45,045 nucleotides of DNA, from positions 1-45,045 of the forward strand of contig CASEJU010000013.1 of NCBI GenBank assembly GCA_949288335.1, read 5' to 3'. Position numbers and translations under genes: made by a program. A model generated the notes under the pieces. That model had not been told where the DNA came from. It worked only from the letters and a program-made list of their open reading frames with translations, and ran no database searches. Of the stretch, positions 4,638 through 8,294 are shown piece by piece; position 1 is the stretch's first letter, and every line of letters starts with the position of its first letter. The DNA is from an uncultured bacterium (GTDB lineage: Bacteria > Bacillota_I > Bacilli_A > RF39 > UBA660).

Positions 4638-6833
4638 ATGGAAAAAAGAATATTTGAAACAGAATTTAAAGGAAGAACGTTAATCGTTGAAGTAGGAGAA
4701 CTTGCAAAGCAAGCTAGTGGGGCTGTTTTAGTAAGATACGGAGATACCGTTGTTTTATCTACTGTGTGTGTAAGTAAAACGGCAAACGTGTTGTCTGATT
4801 TCTTTCCACTTATGGTGCTTTATCAAGAAAAACTTTATTCAGTAGGTAAAATTCCTGGAGGTTTTATAAAAAGAGAAGGAAGACCTAGTGAAGCAGCAAC
4901 GCTTGCAGCTAGAATGATAGATAGACCAATGAGACCACTTTTCCCAGAAGACTTTAGAAATGAAGTTCAAGTTGTTAACACGGTTTTATCCGTTGATCCG
5001 GATAATTCGCCAGAACTTACCGCAATGCTTGGTTCAAGTATTGCAACGTCAATTAGTAAGGTGCCTTTTGAAGGCCCAATAGCAGGCGTTAAAGTAGGTA
5101 GGGTAGACGGAAAATTTATCATTAATCCAACCGTTTTACAAGCAGAGGAAAGTGATATTGATTTAACTGTTGCAGGAACTAAGGATGCTATTAACATGGT
5201 AGAAGCTGGTGCTAAAGAAGCAAGCGAAGACGATATGTTAGAAGCATTAATGTTTGGTCATGACGCAGTAAAAGAACTTATTAAATTTGAAGAAAAGATA
5301 ATAAAAGAAGTTGGTCAAGAAAAAATGGAGTATGAAACTCTAGAGATAACTGACGAGTTGAAAGATGAAATATACTCTCTTGCAAAAGAGCCACTTGATA
5401 AGGCAATGCGCATTAAAGATAAACAAGAAAAGTATGATGCAATTGATAAAGTAAAAGAAGACGTGGTAGCGAAATTTGAGTATGAAAATGATGATTTAGA
5501 TAAAGATGAACTAAACGAACTTATAACCAAAGTTAAACTTTGTTTAGAAAAAGTAGAATACGAAGTATTTAGAAAGATTGTTGTAAAAGAGAAAAAACGT
5601 GCAGACGGAAGAAAAATGACCGAGATAAGGCCACTTTCAACGGACATCGACTTACTTCCAAGAACTCATGGTTCAGCTTTATTTACTCGTGGTGAAACAC
5701 AAAGTTTATCAGTTGTTACCCTTGGCGCTTTAGGAGAACATCAAATAATTGATGGTTTATCTCCTGAAGATCAAAAAAGGTTTATGCTTCATTATAATTT
5801 TCCGCAATTTTCAGTTGGTGAAACAGGAAGATATGGAGCTCCAGGTCGTCGTGAAATAGGACATGGTGCTTTAGGAGAAAGAGCGCTTTTACAAGTTATT
5901 CCATCAGAAGAAGAATTTCCTTATACAATTCGTGTTGTATCAGAAATACTTGAGTCTAACGGATCATCATCTCAAGCATCTATTTGTGCTGGATGCATGG
6001 CATTAATGGCAGCGGGTGTTCCTATTAAGGCTCCGGTTGCAGGTATCGCGATGGGCCTTATTACCGATGGTGATGATTACACGATACTAACGGATATTCA
6101 AGGTATGGAAGACCATTTAGGTGACATGGACTTTAAGGTAGCAGGTACTAAAGATGGTATTTGTGCTTTACAAATGGATATAAAAATAAAAGGTATTACT
6201 AAAGAAATATTAAAAGAGGCTTTAGCACAAGCTAAAAAAGCAAGAATGGAAATTCTAAAAGTTATTACAAAACAAATCAAAGAGCCAAGAGGTGAAGTTA
6301 GTAAATACGCACCTAAGACGATGACGTTTATGATTGATCCGTTAAAGATTAAAGATGTTATTGGTAAGGGTGGAGAAATGATTACCAAGATAATTCTTGA
6401 AGCATCTGGCGTTGAAACCGTAAATGATATGAACGCCGTTAAAGTGGATTTAGAAGATGATGGTAGGGTAATTATTTATCATACTGATAAAGAAATAATA
6501 GATCGTACCGCAGAAATGATTAAAAACGTGGTAAAAGAAGTTGAAATAGGTAAAATATATACAGGAAAGGTAGTTAAAGTAATAGATGAGCTAGGATGCT
6601 TTGTAGAGCTTTGGGAGGGTTGTGAAGGATTAGTTCATATTTCTCAATTATCTGATAAGAGGGTAGCCAAAGCGTCTGATGTAGTATCAGAAGGTGATGA
6701 CATAATAGTTAAAGCAACGGGATATAAAAATGGTAAACTAACACTTTCTAGAAAAGAAGTCTTGGTAAAAGATAAGATAAAAGATGGTAAAAAAGATAAA
6801 AAAATTACTAAGAAAGAGGAAAATGAAGACTAG
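4638..6833 (+). CDS. pnp: Polyribonucleotide nucleotidyltransferase (PNPase)
   Basis: Shows two RNase PH domains plus KH and S1 domains across the full length. The true start is ATG 4638 ([10 protein letters not shown]), preceded by SD aaaggaga. The ORF-track TTG at 4605 lies inside the terminator hairpin. Confidence 0.97.
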
Positions 6834-6879
6834 TAGTTTTCTTCTTTTTTGATATAATATTTTTGTTAGGAGAAAAAAG

Positions 6880-8217
6880 ATGAGCATAAAAGAAAAAGCA
6901 AAATTATTTGCGATAAAAGCCCATGGTAGCCAGAATAGAAAAAGTGAACCGGATAAGTTAGTTGTTATGCACTCTATTAGTGTAGGAAATTTATTGGAGT
7001 TTTTTGGATGTGATGATAATGTTGTTGCGGCAGGTTATTTGCACGATGTAGTAGAGGATACTAAATATACAATTGATGATATAAAAAAAGAGTTTGGAAG
7101 TGATGTTGCAAACCTTGTTATGGGAGCATCAGAAAAAGATAAGTCTTTGTCATGGGAAGAAAGAAAAATACACACGATAAATGAATCAAAAACTTTGCCT
7201 TTAAGAAATAAATTAATTATTTGTGCAGATAAGATTAATAATCTAGAGGATTTATATTTAAAATTTGAAAAAGAAGGTAAAATGGATTTTTCTTGTTTTA
7301 AAAGAGGAGAAGAAAAACAAAGATGGTATTATACTAGTATTTATGAAAGTTTAATACATGATGAAAATAAAGAATTACCTATGTTTGTAAGACTTAAAAA
7401 CATAATTGATAAATTGTTTTATCAAAAAAAGGACAACCATAATTTAGGAAACACTATATTTATAGATGATAAAGATTATTATTTAGAATTAAAAAAATTA
7501 CATGCTATGAAAACCGAAGTAAAAAGACTTAAAGAATTATGTAAGTTATCTAAACCATTTGTAGTAGAGTTTAGTGGTACACCCAGAACAGGTAAAACAA
7601 CCATGATAAACAATTTATATGATTTTTTTAAAAAAGCTGGTTTTAATATAAAATTAATTGAGGAGTTTACTACCTCAAAATATTATAAAGAGGTATTAAA
7701 AAAGAAAATATCAAACGAGTCTATAGAAAAACGTAATATAATAATTTTAAATGAGGTTACTAAACAATTGGAAGAAGCACTTAATCATAGTTATGATATA
7801 ATTTTGATTGATAGGTCAATAAATGATAGGTTGATTTGGAATAACATAAAATACAATGATGGTGATATGTCAAAAGATACATATTATGATCTTATGAATA
7901 AATATAAGACTATTTCAAGCGAATTAATAGATGTTTTAATTATTACTTATGCTGATTCATTAACCTCTTTAAAAAGAGATTATTTATCTAGTTTATCTTT
8001 AGAAAAAAGAAGCTTTTTGAACATAGATAATATTGATAAGTATAATAAAGCATTGAAAAAATTAAATGATTTATTTTCTAAAAGCATTGATTCTTATCTT
8101 TTAATAGATACCTCAAACGTTAATTTAAGAGATGTTTCATTAAAAGCAGCGTTTAAAATACTACCTTCAATGAGAAAAAAATACATAAATGAATTTAAAA
8201 AAGATAATAACATTTAA
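6880..8217 (+). CDS. Fusion protein: N-terminal RelA/SpoT-type HD (alarmone-hydrolase-like) domain plus C-terminal P-loop dNK/NMP-kinase-like domain
   Basis: The N-terminal half has His (VVMHSISV) and the LHDVVEDT signature (7042-7062) of RSH hydrolase domains. The C-terminal half has Walker A GTPRTGKTT (7576-7602) and a LIDRSINDRLIW motif resembling the ERS motif of deoxynucleoside kinases. Confidence 0.8.
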   Translation: MSIKEKAKLFAIKAHGSQNRKSEPDKLVVMHSISVGNLLEFFGCDDNVVAAGYLHDVVEDTKYTIDDIKKEFGSDVANLVMGASEKDKSLSWEERKIHTINESKTLPLRNKLIICADKINNLEDLYLKFEKEGKMDFSCFKRGEEKQRWYYTSIYESLIHDENKELPMFVRLKNIIDKLFYQKKDNHNLGNTIFIDDKDYYLELKKLHAMKTEVKRLKELCKLSKPFVVEFSGTPRTGKTTMINNLYDFFKKAGFNIKLIEEFTTSKYYKEVLKKKISNESIEKRNIIILNEVTKQLEEALNHSYDIILIDRSINDRLIWNNIKYNDGDMSKDTYYDLMNKYKTISSELIDVLIITYADSLTSLKRDYLSSLSLEKRSFLNIDNIDKYNKALKKLNDLFSKSIDSYLLIDTSNVNLRDVSLKAAFKILPSMRKKYINEFKKDNNI

Positions 8218-8240
8218 AAGGCATTTTTGCCTTTTTATTT
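8216..8240 (+). terminator. Rho-independent terminator
   Basis: Stem aaaggca (8217-8223) / tgccttt (8228-8234) with a 4-nt loop and a T-run. Confidence 0.7.
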
Positions 8241-8294
8241 TGACACATTTTAAACAAAGACTTATAATAATATATAAATATTGGAGGTGTTTAC

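Follow-up and report, generated by a model that had tools for sequence, protein, structure and literature searches.

The 45,045-nucleotide stretch of DNA analyzed here (the window) includes a real, uncharacterized gene, found in gut bacteria with small genomes, for a protein in which a (p)ppGpp-type hydrolase and a deoxynucleoside/thymidylate-kinase-like domain are fused. The first-pass annotation had read this gene as a fusion of an RSH hydrolase with a kinase-like domain, and this reading was borne out by the open reading frame, by the Pfam HD_4 match and by AF2 models compared with solved structures using Foldseek. The 445-aa protein matches a database cluster at 100%, and the Pfam content of the cluster is HD_4 plus AAA_28. 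The full-length AF2 model had a pLDDT of 91.1 and a pTM of 0.89. No experimentally defined function or description of an RSH-hydrolase plus kinase-like architecture was found in the literature searched, in agreement with the annotation, which had considered the architecture uncharacterized. To our knowledge, small alarmone hydrolases (SAHs) are known solely as single-domain enzymes. Their physiological substrates are debated, the candidates being (p)ppGpp, (p)ppApp, NADPH and pyrophosphorylated tRNA. The natural joining of an SAH to a nucleos(t)ide-kinase-like domain across a lineage offers a built-in clue to the use of the hydrolase product, and the enzyme may bear on nucleotide-pool management and stringent signaling in the reduced genomes of uncultured gut Bacilli.

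Gene and genomic context

As the first-pass annotation had placed it, the gene (Table 1) lies between pnp, which encodes PNPase and ends at position 6833, and a two-component system consisting of an OmpR-type response regulator and a histidine kinase. An RNase J gene is found on the minus strand beyond the two-component genes, and the context of the fusion gene in the window consists of core housekeeping genes. The spacer of 46 nt that follows pnp includes an extended -10 sequence, TGATATAAT, at 6850-6858, which is a consensus match only, and an AGGAG at 6868-6872, located 7 nt ahead of the ATG of the fusion gene. On the other side, the hairpin AAAAGGCAtttTGCCTTTT, which gives a terminator reading on both strands, and a perfect TTGACA-17-TATAAT promoter at 8240-8268 set the fusion gene apart from the two-component genes. 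The proposal that the gene is monocistronic held on this downstream side; toward pnp it was not established, since the terminator scan found none between pnp and the fusion gene and read-through could occur.

Table 1. Features of the hydrolase-kinase fusion gene and its flanks, in window coordinates.
Feature	Position	Strand	Basis
Possible own promoter and RBS	6850..6872	+	Sequence reading, consensus match only
Hydrolase-kinase fusion gene, complete CDS	6880..8217	+	445 aa, ATG start, TAA stop; ORF list
Predicted RSH-type HD hydrolase domain, MixSpo/RelH-like SAH, residues 1-184	6880..7431	+	HD_4, 4YF1, Foldseek
LHDVVEDT, RSH motifs HD3 and HD4, residues 54-61	7039..7062	+	Coordinates verified
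ADKINNL, RSH motif HD6 (D117, N121)	7225..7245	+	Coordinates verified
Flexible linker, then long helix (residues 198-220) into the kinase-like domain	7432..7554	+	AF2 models
Predicted P-loop kinase-like domain, dNK/TMPK fold class, residues 226-445	7555..8214	+	AF2, Foldseek
Walker A / P-loop GTPRTGKTT, residues 233-241	7576..7602	+	Coordinates verified
Segment EEFTTS following strand 2, candidate for catalytic base and acceptor binding	7660..7677	+	Invariant columns, alignment
LIDRSINDRLIW, residues 309-320	7804..7839	+	Invariant columns, 8PUU alignment, model
LID-like segment LKRDYLSSLSLEKRSF	7969..8016	+	Invariant columns, pLDDT dip
Hairpin terminator AAAAGGCAtttTGCCTTTT	8216..8235	+	Directly after stop codon; terminator scan, sequence verified

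The predicted N-terminal alarmone hydrolase domain

Homology and structure prediction identify the N-terminal domain as an SAH, probably of the MixSpo/RelH type. Pfam HD_4 (PF13328) matched residues 10-125 with E=3.4e-14 (53.3 bits against a cut-off of 27.2), and the sequence comparison with solved structures identified Lmo0812 (4YF1) over residues 4-170 with E=1.3e-31, followed by Mesh1 (E=8.6e-17) and RelH (E=8e-16). Lmo0812 is the best solved relative by far, in what is a similarity ranking and not a tree. Foldseek comparison to 4YF1 gave TM values of 0.87-0.91, an rmsd of 1.5 A and 38-40% identity, while the TM values were 0.84-0.87 for RelH and 0.76-0.80 for Mesh1. Lmo0812 has been classed in the MixSpo/RelH SAH family (PMC10434055) and has also been called an unpublished putative SAH (PMC9293644).

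All six RSH hydrolase motifs (HD1-HD6) are intact in the window protein. The residues R20-K21, H31, H55-D56, E59-D60, R95-K96, D117 and N121 are invariant or at least 90% conserved among 25 aligned relatives; the metal-binding H55 and D56 and the Glu-Asp pair E59 and D60 of LHDVVEDT, as well as D117 and N121 of ADKINNL, belong to the invariant ones. The Mesh1/SAH-type character that the first-pass annotation had assigned to this half was thus upheld, and the catalytic HD residues, the loss of which it had named as a possible objection, are retained. RelA_SpoT (PF04607) had no Pfam match in the 445-aa protein, which points to a hydrolase-only RSH, and the synthetase domains of the source genome sit in three other genes. 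The domain would act as a metal-dependent HD enzyme that takes the 3'-diphosphate off (pp)pGpp and (pp)pApp. Certain relatives also accept other 2'/3'-phosphorylated nucleotides, NADPH being one example. SAHs are promiscuous and act on (pp)pGpp, pppApp and NADPH (PMC9765508).

The first 184 residues share the fold and the six motifs with the MixSpo/RelH SAHs used for comparison, L. monocytogenes Lmo0812, C. glutamicum RelH (7QOC/7QOD) and L. levettii RelH (7QOE). Those proteins are known as single-domain enzymes of about 180-200 aa, whereas the window protein adds a P-loop kinase-like domain of 220 residues and many of its relatives add a further HD domain at the N-terminus. In the window protein, the two parts are connected through a linker in which residues 185-187 have a pLDDT below 50 in the AF2 model.

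The C-terminal kinase-like domain

On the same kind of evidence, the C-terminal domain is assigned to the P-loop phosphotransferases of the dNK/TMPK class. Its catalytic set is complete and is composed of the P-loop Lys, a Glu after strand 2, an Asp-Arg after strand 3 and LID arginines. The AF2 model of this domain (pLDDT 92.8, pTM 0.90) has a P-loop kinase fold with a five-stranded parallel sheet and a LID, and its strand order is that of the family. The top Foldseek matches in the PDB were TMPK, dCK, dNK, dAK and AbmG (probability 1.00, TM 0.5-0.76), and the best 50 were all enzymes of these kinds or adenylate kinase, each with probability 1.00. A BFVD search returned the same classes, in the form of viral dNK/dTMP kinases with probability 1.0. 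A match to a non-kinase ATPase family, which would have spoken against the first-pass annotation, was not found at the fold level. Membership in SRP54/FtsY was considered and rejected; the profile matches (E=8e-6) span only the start of the domain, the helix plus P-loop (about 75 residues), with no fold-level support.

Conservation in the 25 aligned relatives follows the elements expected for such an enzyme. In the Walker A motif, G233, P235, R236, T237, G238, K239 and T240 are invariant. The same is true for E262, T264, T265 and S266 of EEFTTS, a segment that aligned to the 'EP' site of Giardia deoxyadenosine kinase. The sequence LIDRSINDRLIW, which the AF2 model places at the end of strand 3, includes D311-R312-S313, with an Asp resembling that of Walker B next to an Arg, and further along D316, R317 and W320, all of them in invariant columns. 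D311-R312-S313 is the equivalent of the dNK ERS or the TMPK DR(Y/H) and aligned to the DRS of the deoxyadenosine kinase 8PUU. Both the Walker A and the ERS-like motif recognized in the first-pass annotation are found within a dNK/TMPK-class fold. R366, D367, Y368, E375 and R377 of LKRDYLSSLSLEKRSF are invariant, 'slkR' of the LID segment aligned to 'sleR' of 8PUU, and the local pLDDT dips to 72-76, as expected of a mobile lid. The profile alignment with Giardia dAK (E=1.7e-4) agreed at the Glu, DRS and LID positions.

The domain was compared with Dm-dNK, human dCK, the Mycoplasma and Giardia dAK and the A. aeolicus and T. maritima TMPK. It shares with them the five-stranded P-loop kinase fold, the Walker A, the strand-2 Glu, the (D/E)-R-S and an Arg-bearing LID. 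In contrast to these enzymes, it stays below the Pfam dNK and Thymidylate_kin thresholds and has invariant motifs of its own (EEFTTS, DRSxxDRxIW, LKRDY and LEKRxF). The nearest Pfam family was the catch-all AAA_28, at residues 231-327 with E=7e-6 and 26.8 bits against a cut-off of 27. Thymidylate_kin (PF02223) gave E=0.0036 and 17.4 bits, below the curated threshold of 27, and no match to dNK (PF01712) was reported for the 445-aa protein. Among the 108 family representatives, no more than 10 and 4 matched these two families at E<=0.001. Of the Pfam families that the first-pass annotation had put forward, HD_4 exceeded its gathering score, while dNK, Thymidylate_kin and AAA_33 were not reached. 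With scores short of the dNK and Thymidylate_kin thresholds, the domain was filed as a family of its own within the same fold class, a member of neither dNK nor TMPK. Its identity with solved kinases is 14-21%, and at this identity and the TM values obtained the acceptor is not readable from homology. A role as replacement for a missing tmk was discarded, as the source genome has a separate canonical tmk on contig C64. The search for a true dNK gene found none in the genus.

Distribution, architectures and neighborhoods of relatives

The taxonomic survey suggested in the first-pass annotation identified the fusion in 235 species-level genomes, all of them from uncultured gut Bacilli. The carriers are nucleotide-scavenging, and their hosts are chickens, rabbits, mice, ruminants and humans. 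Scanning of genome contigs with a single-sequence query produced 0 matches, and an alignment-based scan was needed. Only 4 of the 37 species of the source genus have the fusion, and for this reason the gene is regarded as dispensable. Nearly half of the relatives are of a 652-aa form that has a YpgQ-like HD domain as a third, N-terminal part. This extra domain, which is not present in the window protein, matched PF01966 (E=1.8e-7) and is weakly similar to 5DQV (E=0.011), 2PQ7 and 2PJQ. We take 5DQV, the PDB entry of which is titled 'Uncharacterized protein', to be the B. subtilis YpgQ-type HD nucleotide pyrophosphohydrolase; the likeness to it belongs only to the classical HD domain of the 652-aa relatives. 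A stand-alone YpgQ-like HD protein was not found in the source genome, in a search that had no positive control.

The kinase-like family comprises about 490 clusters at 50% identity without annotated function, and its divergent members carry 'hypothetical protein' names only. Among the 108 representatives, the sole recurring partner domains are nucleotide phosphohydrolases, with HD_4 in 22, HD in 16 and NUDIX in 6, and many divergent Nudix boxes occur in the family besides those recognized by Pfam. The kinase-like domain also occurs by itself, and it can stand before or after its partner in fusions to hydrolases of three unrelated types. That the family is joined again and again to Nudix and HD hydrolases suggests a "hydrolase plus kinase" module of general occurrence in nucleotide metabolism, so far undescribed.

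The gene neighborhoods are variable. In 78 loci the only recurrent operon partner was a UDG-superfamily gene (about 10 loci), HD_3, NUDIX and His_Phos_1 were found in 2 loci each, and a nucleotide-metabolism neighbor was absent from most. No conserved operon or partner gene was detected across the related loci. The pnp-RNase J gene order is kept in one relative genome (G034), and in another (G012) the fusion gene has dnaJ on one side and a sigma-factor gene on the other. As the arrangement is confined to the nearest relatives, the idea of an operon conserved with pnp or RNase J was rejected; PNPase accounted for only 2 of 109 putative operon partners at 53 loci. A phage or mobile origin was likewise rejected, given that PADLOC returned no match, the IMG/VR contigs had no fusion and the phage records matched the HD part only, with the fusion absent.

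Discussion

The explanation that we favor, with about even confidence, is that the protein is a bifunctional nucleotide-metabolizing enzyme of a reduced-genome chicken-gut bacterium, dedicated to nucleotide-pool maintenance or alarmone recycling. The hydrolase would turn nucleotides that are aberrant or of the alarmone type into ordinary nucleoside 5'-phosphates, and the kinase would transfer a phosphate from ATP to an NMP or to the 5'-OH of a nucleoside. Acting together, both domains could send salvaged or alarmone-derived nucleos(t)ides back to the usable pool, in a "clear and recharge" fashion. A role in recycling or interconverting signaling nucleotides, as raised in the first-pass annotation, is plausible. 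The fusion would then be an accessory chromosomal housekeeping gene outside any toxin-antitoxin or defense module, and nucleotide-pool housekeeping is most likely its role, rather than that of a toxin antidote or phage-defense factor. The YpgQ-like third HD domain present in nearly half of the relatives fits a multi-step nucleotide-sanitizing enzyme. Counted in favor of this explanation, besides the domain identities, were the recurring phosphohydrolase partners, the UDG neighbors, the size of the source genome (1.08 Mb) with its own tmk, the lack of a true dNK gene in the genus and the promiscuity of SAHs. A chicken-gut run labeled as RNA, counted here as well, contained contigs, fragmentary and 100% identical, from inside the fusion gene. 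Counted against it were the small share of carriers in the genus and the loci without a nucleotide-metabolism neighbor, and also that re-phosphorylation of the products of a sanitizer looks counter-productive if the substrates are aberrant. In addition, the source genome already encodes three Rel-like proteins with HD_4 domains, which leaves no obvious need for one more (p)ppGpp hydrolase.

An unlikely alternative is that the kinase acts on alarmones or their immediate products. It could convert pGpp to ppGpp or ppGpp to pppGpp, phosphorylate the GMP or GDP that the hydrolase sets free, or attach a phosphate at the 3' position, and the fusion would set the ratio of alarmone species instead of feeding the general pool. 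The hydrolase belongs to the alarmone-specific RSH type and lacks none of the motifs, and the source genome has three synthetase-bearing RSH genes. In the long RSH enzymes (Rel/SpoT), too, the RSH HD hydrolase domain precedes a phosphotransfer domain that uses ATP, the synthetase being at the same post-HD position; however, that second domain is a (p)ppGpp synthetase of the nucleotidyltransferase fold, and that of the window protein is a P-loop kinase without TGS/ACT. The joining of the kinase-like family to Nudix domains is also consistent with an action on alarmones. Some Nudix enzymes, such as NahA and MutT/NudG, break down (p)ppGpp. The ribose 3'-OH is a known target of some P-loop kinases as well, and APS kinase was a weak profile match (E=0.0046). 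Against these points, the closest folds are 5'-OH and 5'-phosphate kinases of ordinary (deoxy)nucleos(t)ides, YpgQ-like HD is also among the partner domains, the UDG neighbors point to DNA precursors, and the distribution of the fusion does not follow that of the RSH genes, as most species of the genus have 2-3 RSH genes and only 4 of the 37 have the fusion.

Less probable is that the P-loop domain is regulatory, binding ATP or another nucleotide and switching the hydrolase on or off with no substrate being phosphorylated. The pTM of the full-length model and a low-confidence linker of just three residues suggest a fixed packing between the domains, and the hydrolase activity of RSH proteins is often under the control of adjacent domains or oligomerization (PMC9293644). 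However, residues needed for catalysis only (the strand-2 Glu, the strand-3 Asp-Arg and the LID arginines) are invariant down to about 43% identity. Furthermore, that the domain occurs alone, or before or after hydrolases of three unrelated types, is more in keeping with an enzyme module than with a regulator dedicated to one fold. Lower again we place the broader proposal that hydrolase and kinase together form a converter dedicated to signaling nucleotides and that the HD_4, HD and Nudix fusions form an unrecognized enzyme class, which seems doubtful; if it were correct, such a class would control how much of each alarmone species is present or would produce a nucleotide that has yet to be described.

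Nucleic-acid end healing is quite improbable. HD-Pnk end-healing enzymes were reportedly described by Munir and Shuman in 2017 from Runella slithyformis and Deinococcus radiodurans. In HD-Pnk, a single polypeptide starts with an HD phosphoesterase and ends with a P-loop 5'-kinase (PMC6097658), and the order of parts in the window protein is the same. As an analogue of HD-Pnk, the HD domain would strip a 3'-(pyro)phosphate from RNA and the kinase would phosphorylate the 5'-OH, readying the RNA for PNPase and RNase J. The gene adjoins pnp and is near the RNase J gene, an order kept in G034, and RSH-type hydrolases can take the pyrophosphate added by toxSAS off tRNA 3' ends (bioRxiv 10.1101/2021.04.30.441581). 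On the other hand, the pnp context is not conserved, as seen in G012 and in the rarity of PNPase among the operon partners. HD-Pnk combines a classical HD 2',3'-phosphoesterase with a T4-Pnk-type polynucleotide kinase, whereas the window protein combines an RSH HD_4 domain with a dNK/TMPK-like one. AAA_33, which we take to be the Pfam family of Pnk-type kinases, had no match even at E<=1, and no polynucleotide kinase appeared among the best 50 fold matches or in the PDB profile search. Membership in HD-Pnk was rejected on the grounds of the different HD family and the lack of AAA_33/Pnk similarity. Neither a ligase nor Tpt1 was among the recurrent neighbor families at the 78 loci.

The last alternative, a toxSAS antitoxin or counter-enzyme (as proposed in the first-pass annotation) or an anti-phage or anti-defense factor, is highly improbable: some SAH families serve as toxSAS antitoxins (PMC7229694) and stand-alone SAH-like genes are carried by phages, but tblastn with the three synthetase-bearing RSH proteins against 80 related loci, with flanks of up to 4 kb, located a synthetase domain in 0 of them, there is no conserved partner gene, PADLOC gave no match, the fusion was absent from phages and IMG/VR contigs and the neighbors in the window are core housekeeping genes. 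The absence of a synthetase at these loci and of a phage fusion leaves the antidote idea unsupported.

Domain architecture

The first-pass annotation had described the open reading frame as a fusion of an RSH-type hydrolase and a dNK-like kinase; this observation was confirmed, and all the motifs that it cited were found at the positions assigned to them (see table). The protein is predicted to be a small alarmone hydrolase (SAH) with an attached nucleos(t)ide-kinase-like domain, an apparently new architecture made of components of known kinds. No description of it was found in the literature searched on small alarmone hydrolases, MixSpo/RelH and kinase combinations, and two published RSH censuses do not mention a hydrolase-kinase fusion.

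Features of the fusion gene, its relatives and their genomes
Feature	Position	Strand	Remark
Fusion ORF	6880..8217	+	ATG to TAA, 445 aa
LHDVVEDT	residues 54-61	+	N-terminal half
GTPRTGKTT	residues 233-241	+	C-terminal half
LIDRSINDRLIW	residues 309-320	+	C-terminal half
Hairpin	8216-8235		terminator-like on either strand; directly after fusion stop codon
Perfect sigma-70 promoter, TTGACA-17-TATAAT	8240-8268		of response-regulator/histidine-kinase pair; 4 nt past hairpin
UDG-superfamily genes	L029:2695-3414, L043:2680-3414, L057:2641-3414, L062:2707-3414, L083:2635-3414 and others
Frameshifted/truncated first-HD (YpgQ-like) remnants	L086:918-1679, L061:3379-3876, L020/L018:3381-3635, L047:3537-3809		upstream of short fusion genes
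HD_4 + RelA_SpoT genes, window's genome (G000)	C80:16181-19507, C51:32700-36641, C18:4318-8229		loci L001-L006
Stand-alone SAH-like ORF	G009:C24:8460-8969		L012; 198 aa

In the N-terminal half, residues 10-125 matched Pfam HD_4 above threshold (E=3.4e-14) and residues 10-123 partially matched the NCBIfam spoT_relA model. The closest PDB sequence was L. monocytogenes Lmo0812 (4YF1; E=1.3e-31, residues 4-170), followed by Drosophila Mesh1 (8.6e-17), Leptospira RelH (8e-16) and then the hydrolase domains of Rel enzymes. Lmo0812 is assigned to the MixSpo (RelH) family of SAHs (PMC10434055) and is itself without published biochemistry (PMC9293644). The AlphaFold model of the full-length protein (pLDDT 91.1, pTM 0.89), in which both domains are predicted to sit in one well-packed polypeptide, superimposed on 4YF1 with TM 0.87-0.91, an rmsd of 1.5 A and 38-40% identity; TM was 0.84-0.87 for C. 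glutamicum RelH and 0.76-0.80 for Mesh1. Across 25 aligned family members, conservation at the residues of all six RSH hydrolase motifs (R20-K21, H31, H55-D56, E59-D60, R95-K96, D117 and N121 in the fusion) is complete or at least 90%. Since these motifs are conserved and a synthetase domain is absent from the protein, it is classed as a hydrolase-only RSH. The SAH/Mesh1-type reading therefore holds, with a domain predicted to be catalytically intact.

The C-terminal half gave weak P-loop matches only in Pfam (best AAA_28, 26.8 bits versus a cut-off of 27; Thymidylate_kin, E=0.0036) and no specific match in NCBIfam, and a PADLOC search of the fusion returned no hits. Residues 198-445, modeled with 30 homologues (pLDDT 92.8, pTM 0.90), are predicted to adopt a five-stranded P-loop fold, one loop, at fragment positions of about 171-180, being less certain. 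The best 50 Foldseek matches in the PDB were nucleoside/nucleotide kinases only: thymidylate kinases (A. aeolicus, T. maritima at TMt 0.76, yeast, human and Plasmodium), deoxycytidine kinase, Drosophila dNK, Mycoplasma and Giardia deoxyadenosine kinases, the cytidine kinase AbmG and one adenylate kinase. Their probability was 1.00 throughout, yet TM was 0.5-0.76 and identity 14-21%. Matches in a viral structure library belonged to these classes too, except for one of PPK2 type and one of NadR type. Profile matches to PDB sequences were weak: SRP54/FtsY (E=8e-6) over about 75 residues at the P-loop start only, Giardia dAK (1.7e-4), Mycoplasma dGK/dAK (0.07) and TMPK (0.08-0.09).

Upon alignment to Giardia dAK, the family E-F-T-T-S is placed over the E-P site that follows strand 2 of the kinase, the DRS motifs of the two coincide, and 'slkR' lines up with 'sleR' where the LID begins. 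Invariant in the family are E230-F231-G233-x-P-R-T-G-K-T240 in the P-loop region and, beyond it, E262/T264/T265/S266, D311-R312-S313, D316-R317, W320, R366-D367-Y368 and E375/R377/F379. Judged from sequence, this is the probable catalytic inventory of an active dNK/TMPK-class phosphotransferase, so that the analogy to the ERS motif proposed in the first pass was borne out. The domain is thus predicted to be a catalytically equipped dNK/TMPK-class kinase domain; as it lies below the Pfam dNK and Thymidylate_kin thresholds, it was considered a family of its own in this fold class.

Distribution and domain partners

A search with a word index returned 1844 proteins at E<=0.001. The best 120 show 64-77% identity and, with few exceptions, contain both HD_4 and AAA_28; the most informative name given to them is 'HD domain-containing protein [Bacilli bacterium]'. 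Relatives fall into two length classes, about 445 and 652 aa, the longer having an additional classical HD domain at the N-terminus (PF01966, E=1.8e-7) with weak similarity to the HD hydrolases 2PQ7, 2PJQ and 5DQV. With each species represented by one genome, a pattern scan located relatives in 235 stretches, the best 80 of which all belong to uncultured gut MAGs (mouse, rabbit, chicken, goat, human) labeled Bacilli, Mycoplasma, Tenericutes or 'Clostridium sp. CAG:524'. The gene is intact at 78 loci: the short form accounts for 41 of these and the long form for 34, while 3 are of intermediate length. In several of the short loci, the sequence immediately before the gene retains frameshifted pieces of the first HD domain; therefore, the short form can arise via decay of the long one, a process that these sequences show to be apparently ongoing.

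The window's genome, a 1.08-Mb assembly (94.8% complete), comes from chicken gut according to public reads. Only 4 of 37 species genomes of its genus carry the fusion, which makes it an accessory gene. In one other species a stand-alone SAH-like ORF, 36% identical to fusion residues 10-181, is found instead. The fusion was absent from the phage records and IMG/VR contigs searched, and the phage records matched its SAH part only.

The C-terminal domain was searched exhaustively against 1.84 billion representatives, which gave 492 clusters at E<=0.001; 108 of these entered a Pfam census, which found AAA_28 (61), HD_4 (22), HD (16), Thymidylate_kin (10), NUDIX (6) and dNK (4). Many proteins of about 450 aa (430-475 aa) have the kinase-like domain at the N-terminus and a divergent but recognizable Nudix box (e.g., RELEEE, REVREELG) in the second half; in another class, the kinase-like domain is duplicated in tandem. 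The kinase-then-Nudix proteins appear to form a large uncharacterized class, represented by P0185, P0200 and about 35 more like them (430-475 aa), as well as by the 663-aa P0210 from the marine bacterium AO1-C; Pfam detects the Nudix part in a few members only. According to the census, the recurring partners are only nucleotide (pyro)phosphohydrolases, of three unrelated folds and in either order. The strongest contextual clue is this rule: the kinase-like domain works with a nucleotide hydrolase of whatever fold.

Genomic neighborhood

The gene is flanked by pnp upstream and by an OmpR-type two-component pair downstream, past which RNase J is encoded. It had been annotated as monocistronic, which stands toward the two-component genes, from which a hairpin terminator and a promoter part it, and not toward pnp: the 46-nt spacer contains consensus matches to an extended -10 and a Shine-Dalgarno sequence and, as scanned, no terminator. 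The pnp-fusion-RR-HK order is conserved in a 72%-identical relative (G034); in a 49%-identical one (G012) the gene is located between dnaJ and a sigma-factor gene, and neighbors vary widely across the 78 loci.

Same-strand ORFs within 150 nt were considered putative operon partners (109 ORFs in 53 loci). The uracil-DNA-glycosylase (UDG) superfamily was the sole recurrent family (8 members at E<=1e-5; clustering gave about 10). This gene (PF03167, E ~1e-6, ~240-260 aa) was seen at about 10 of the 78 loci, where it usually immediately precedes the long form; a frequent 34-nt overlap with the start of the latter is suggestive of translational coupling. HD_3, NUDIX and His_Phos_1 neighbors occurred in two loci each. 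One partner matches the 5-hmdU DNA kinase helical domain (PF18723, E=7.8e-104); this kinase is an enzyme of thymidine hypermodification of the kind found in phages.

Proposed function

We hypothesize, at roughly even odds, that the hydrolase and kinase activities would act one after the other on nucleotides, and that their role in this scavenging bacterium with its reduced genome would be to maintain the nucleotide pool or to recycle alarmones. This proposal is based on the hydrolase-partner rule, the third, YpgQ-like HD domain in about half of the relatives, the UDG, HD_3 and Nudix neighbors, and the known substrate promiscuity of SAHs (PMC9765508). Phosphorylation of the alarmones themselves by the kinase domain, attached as it is to an SAH, is unlikely; the structural matches are nucleoside and nucleotide kinases. 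Somewhat less likely still is a purely regulatory P-loop domain, a role to be weighed against the invariant catalytic residues. RNA end healing as performed by HD-Pnk enzymes (PMC6097658) is improbable: they have the same layout, but the families differ on both sides, the fusion failed both testable HD-Pnk features, and the C-terminal profile search of PDB sequences found no polynucleotide kinase. The toxSAS counter-enzyme suggested in the first pass, the part of its interpretation that did not survive alongside the domain readings, is very improbable, no alarmone-synthetase domain being found in the flanks (up to 4 kb) of 80 loci. A further loose analogy for a kinase joined to a phosphohydrolase is offered by those plant TTM proteins that contain a P-loop kinase domain (PMC9582702).

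Expression and other genes of the genome

Contigs within 7074-7632, with 100% identity, were present in an RNA-labeled chicken-gut run, their depth being similar to that of pnp; they are weak evidence for expression of the fusion gene and silent on co-transcription. The genome has its own thymidylate kinase gene, and no true dNK-family gene was found in the genus. Three other genes (ORFs of 731, 485 and 387 aa) each have HD_4 and synthetase (RelA_SpoT) domains, an RSH repertoire that is unusually rich for a 1.08-Mb genome. In most species of the genus, one long Rel is likewise accompanied by two short HD+SYNTH proteins (about 375-510 aa).
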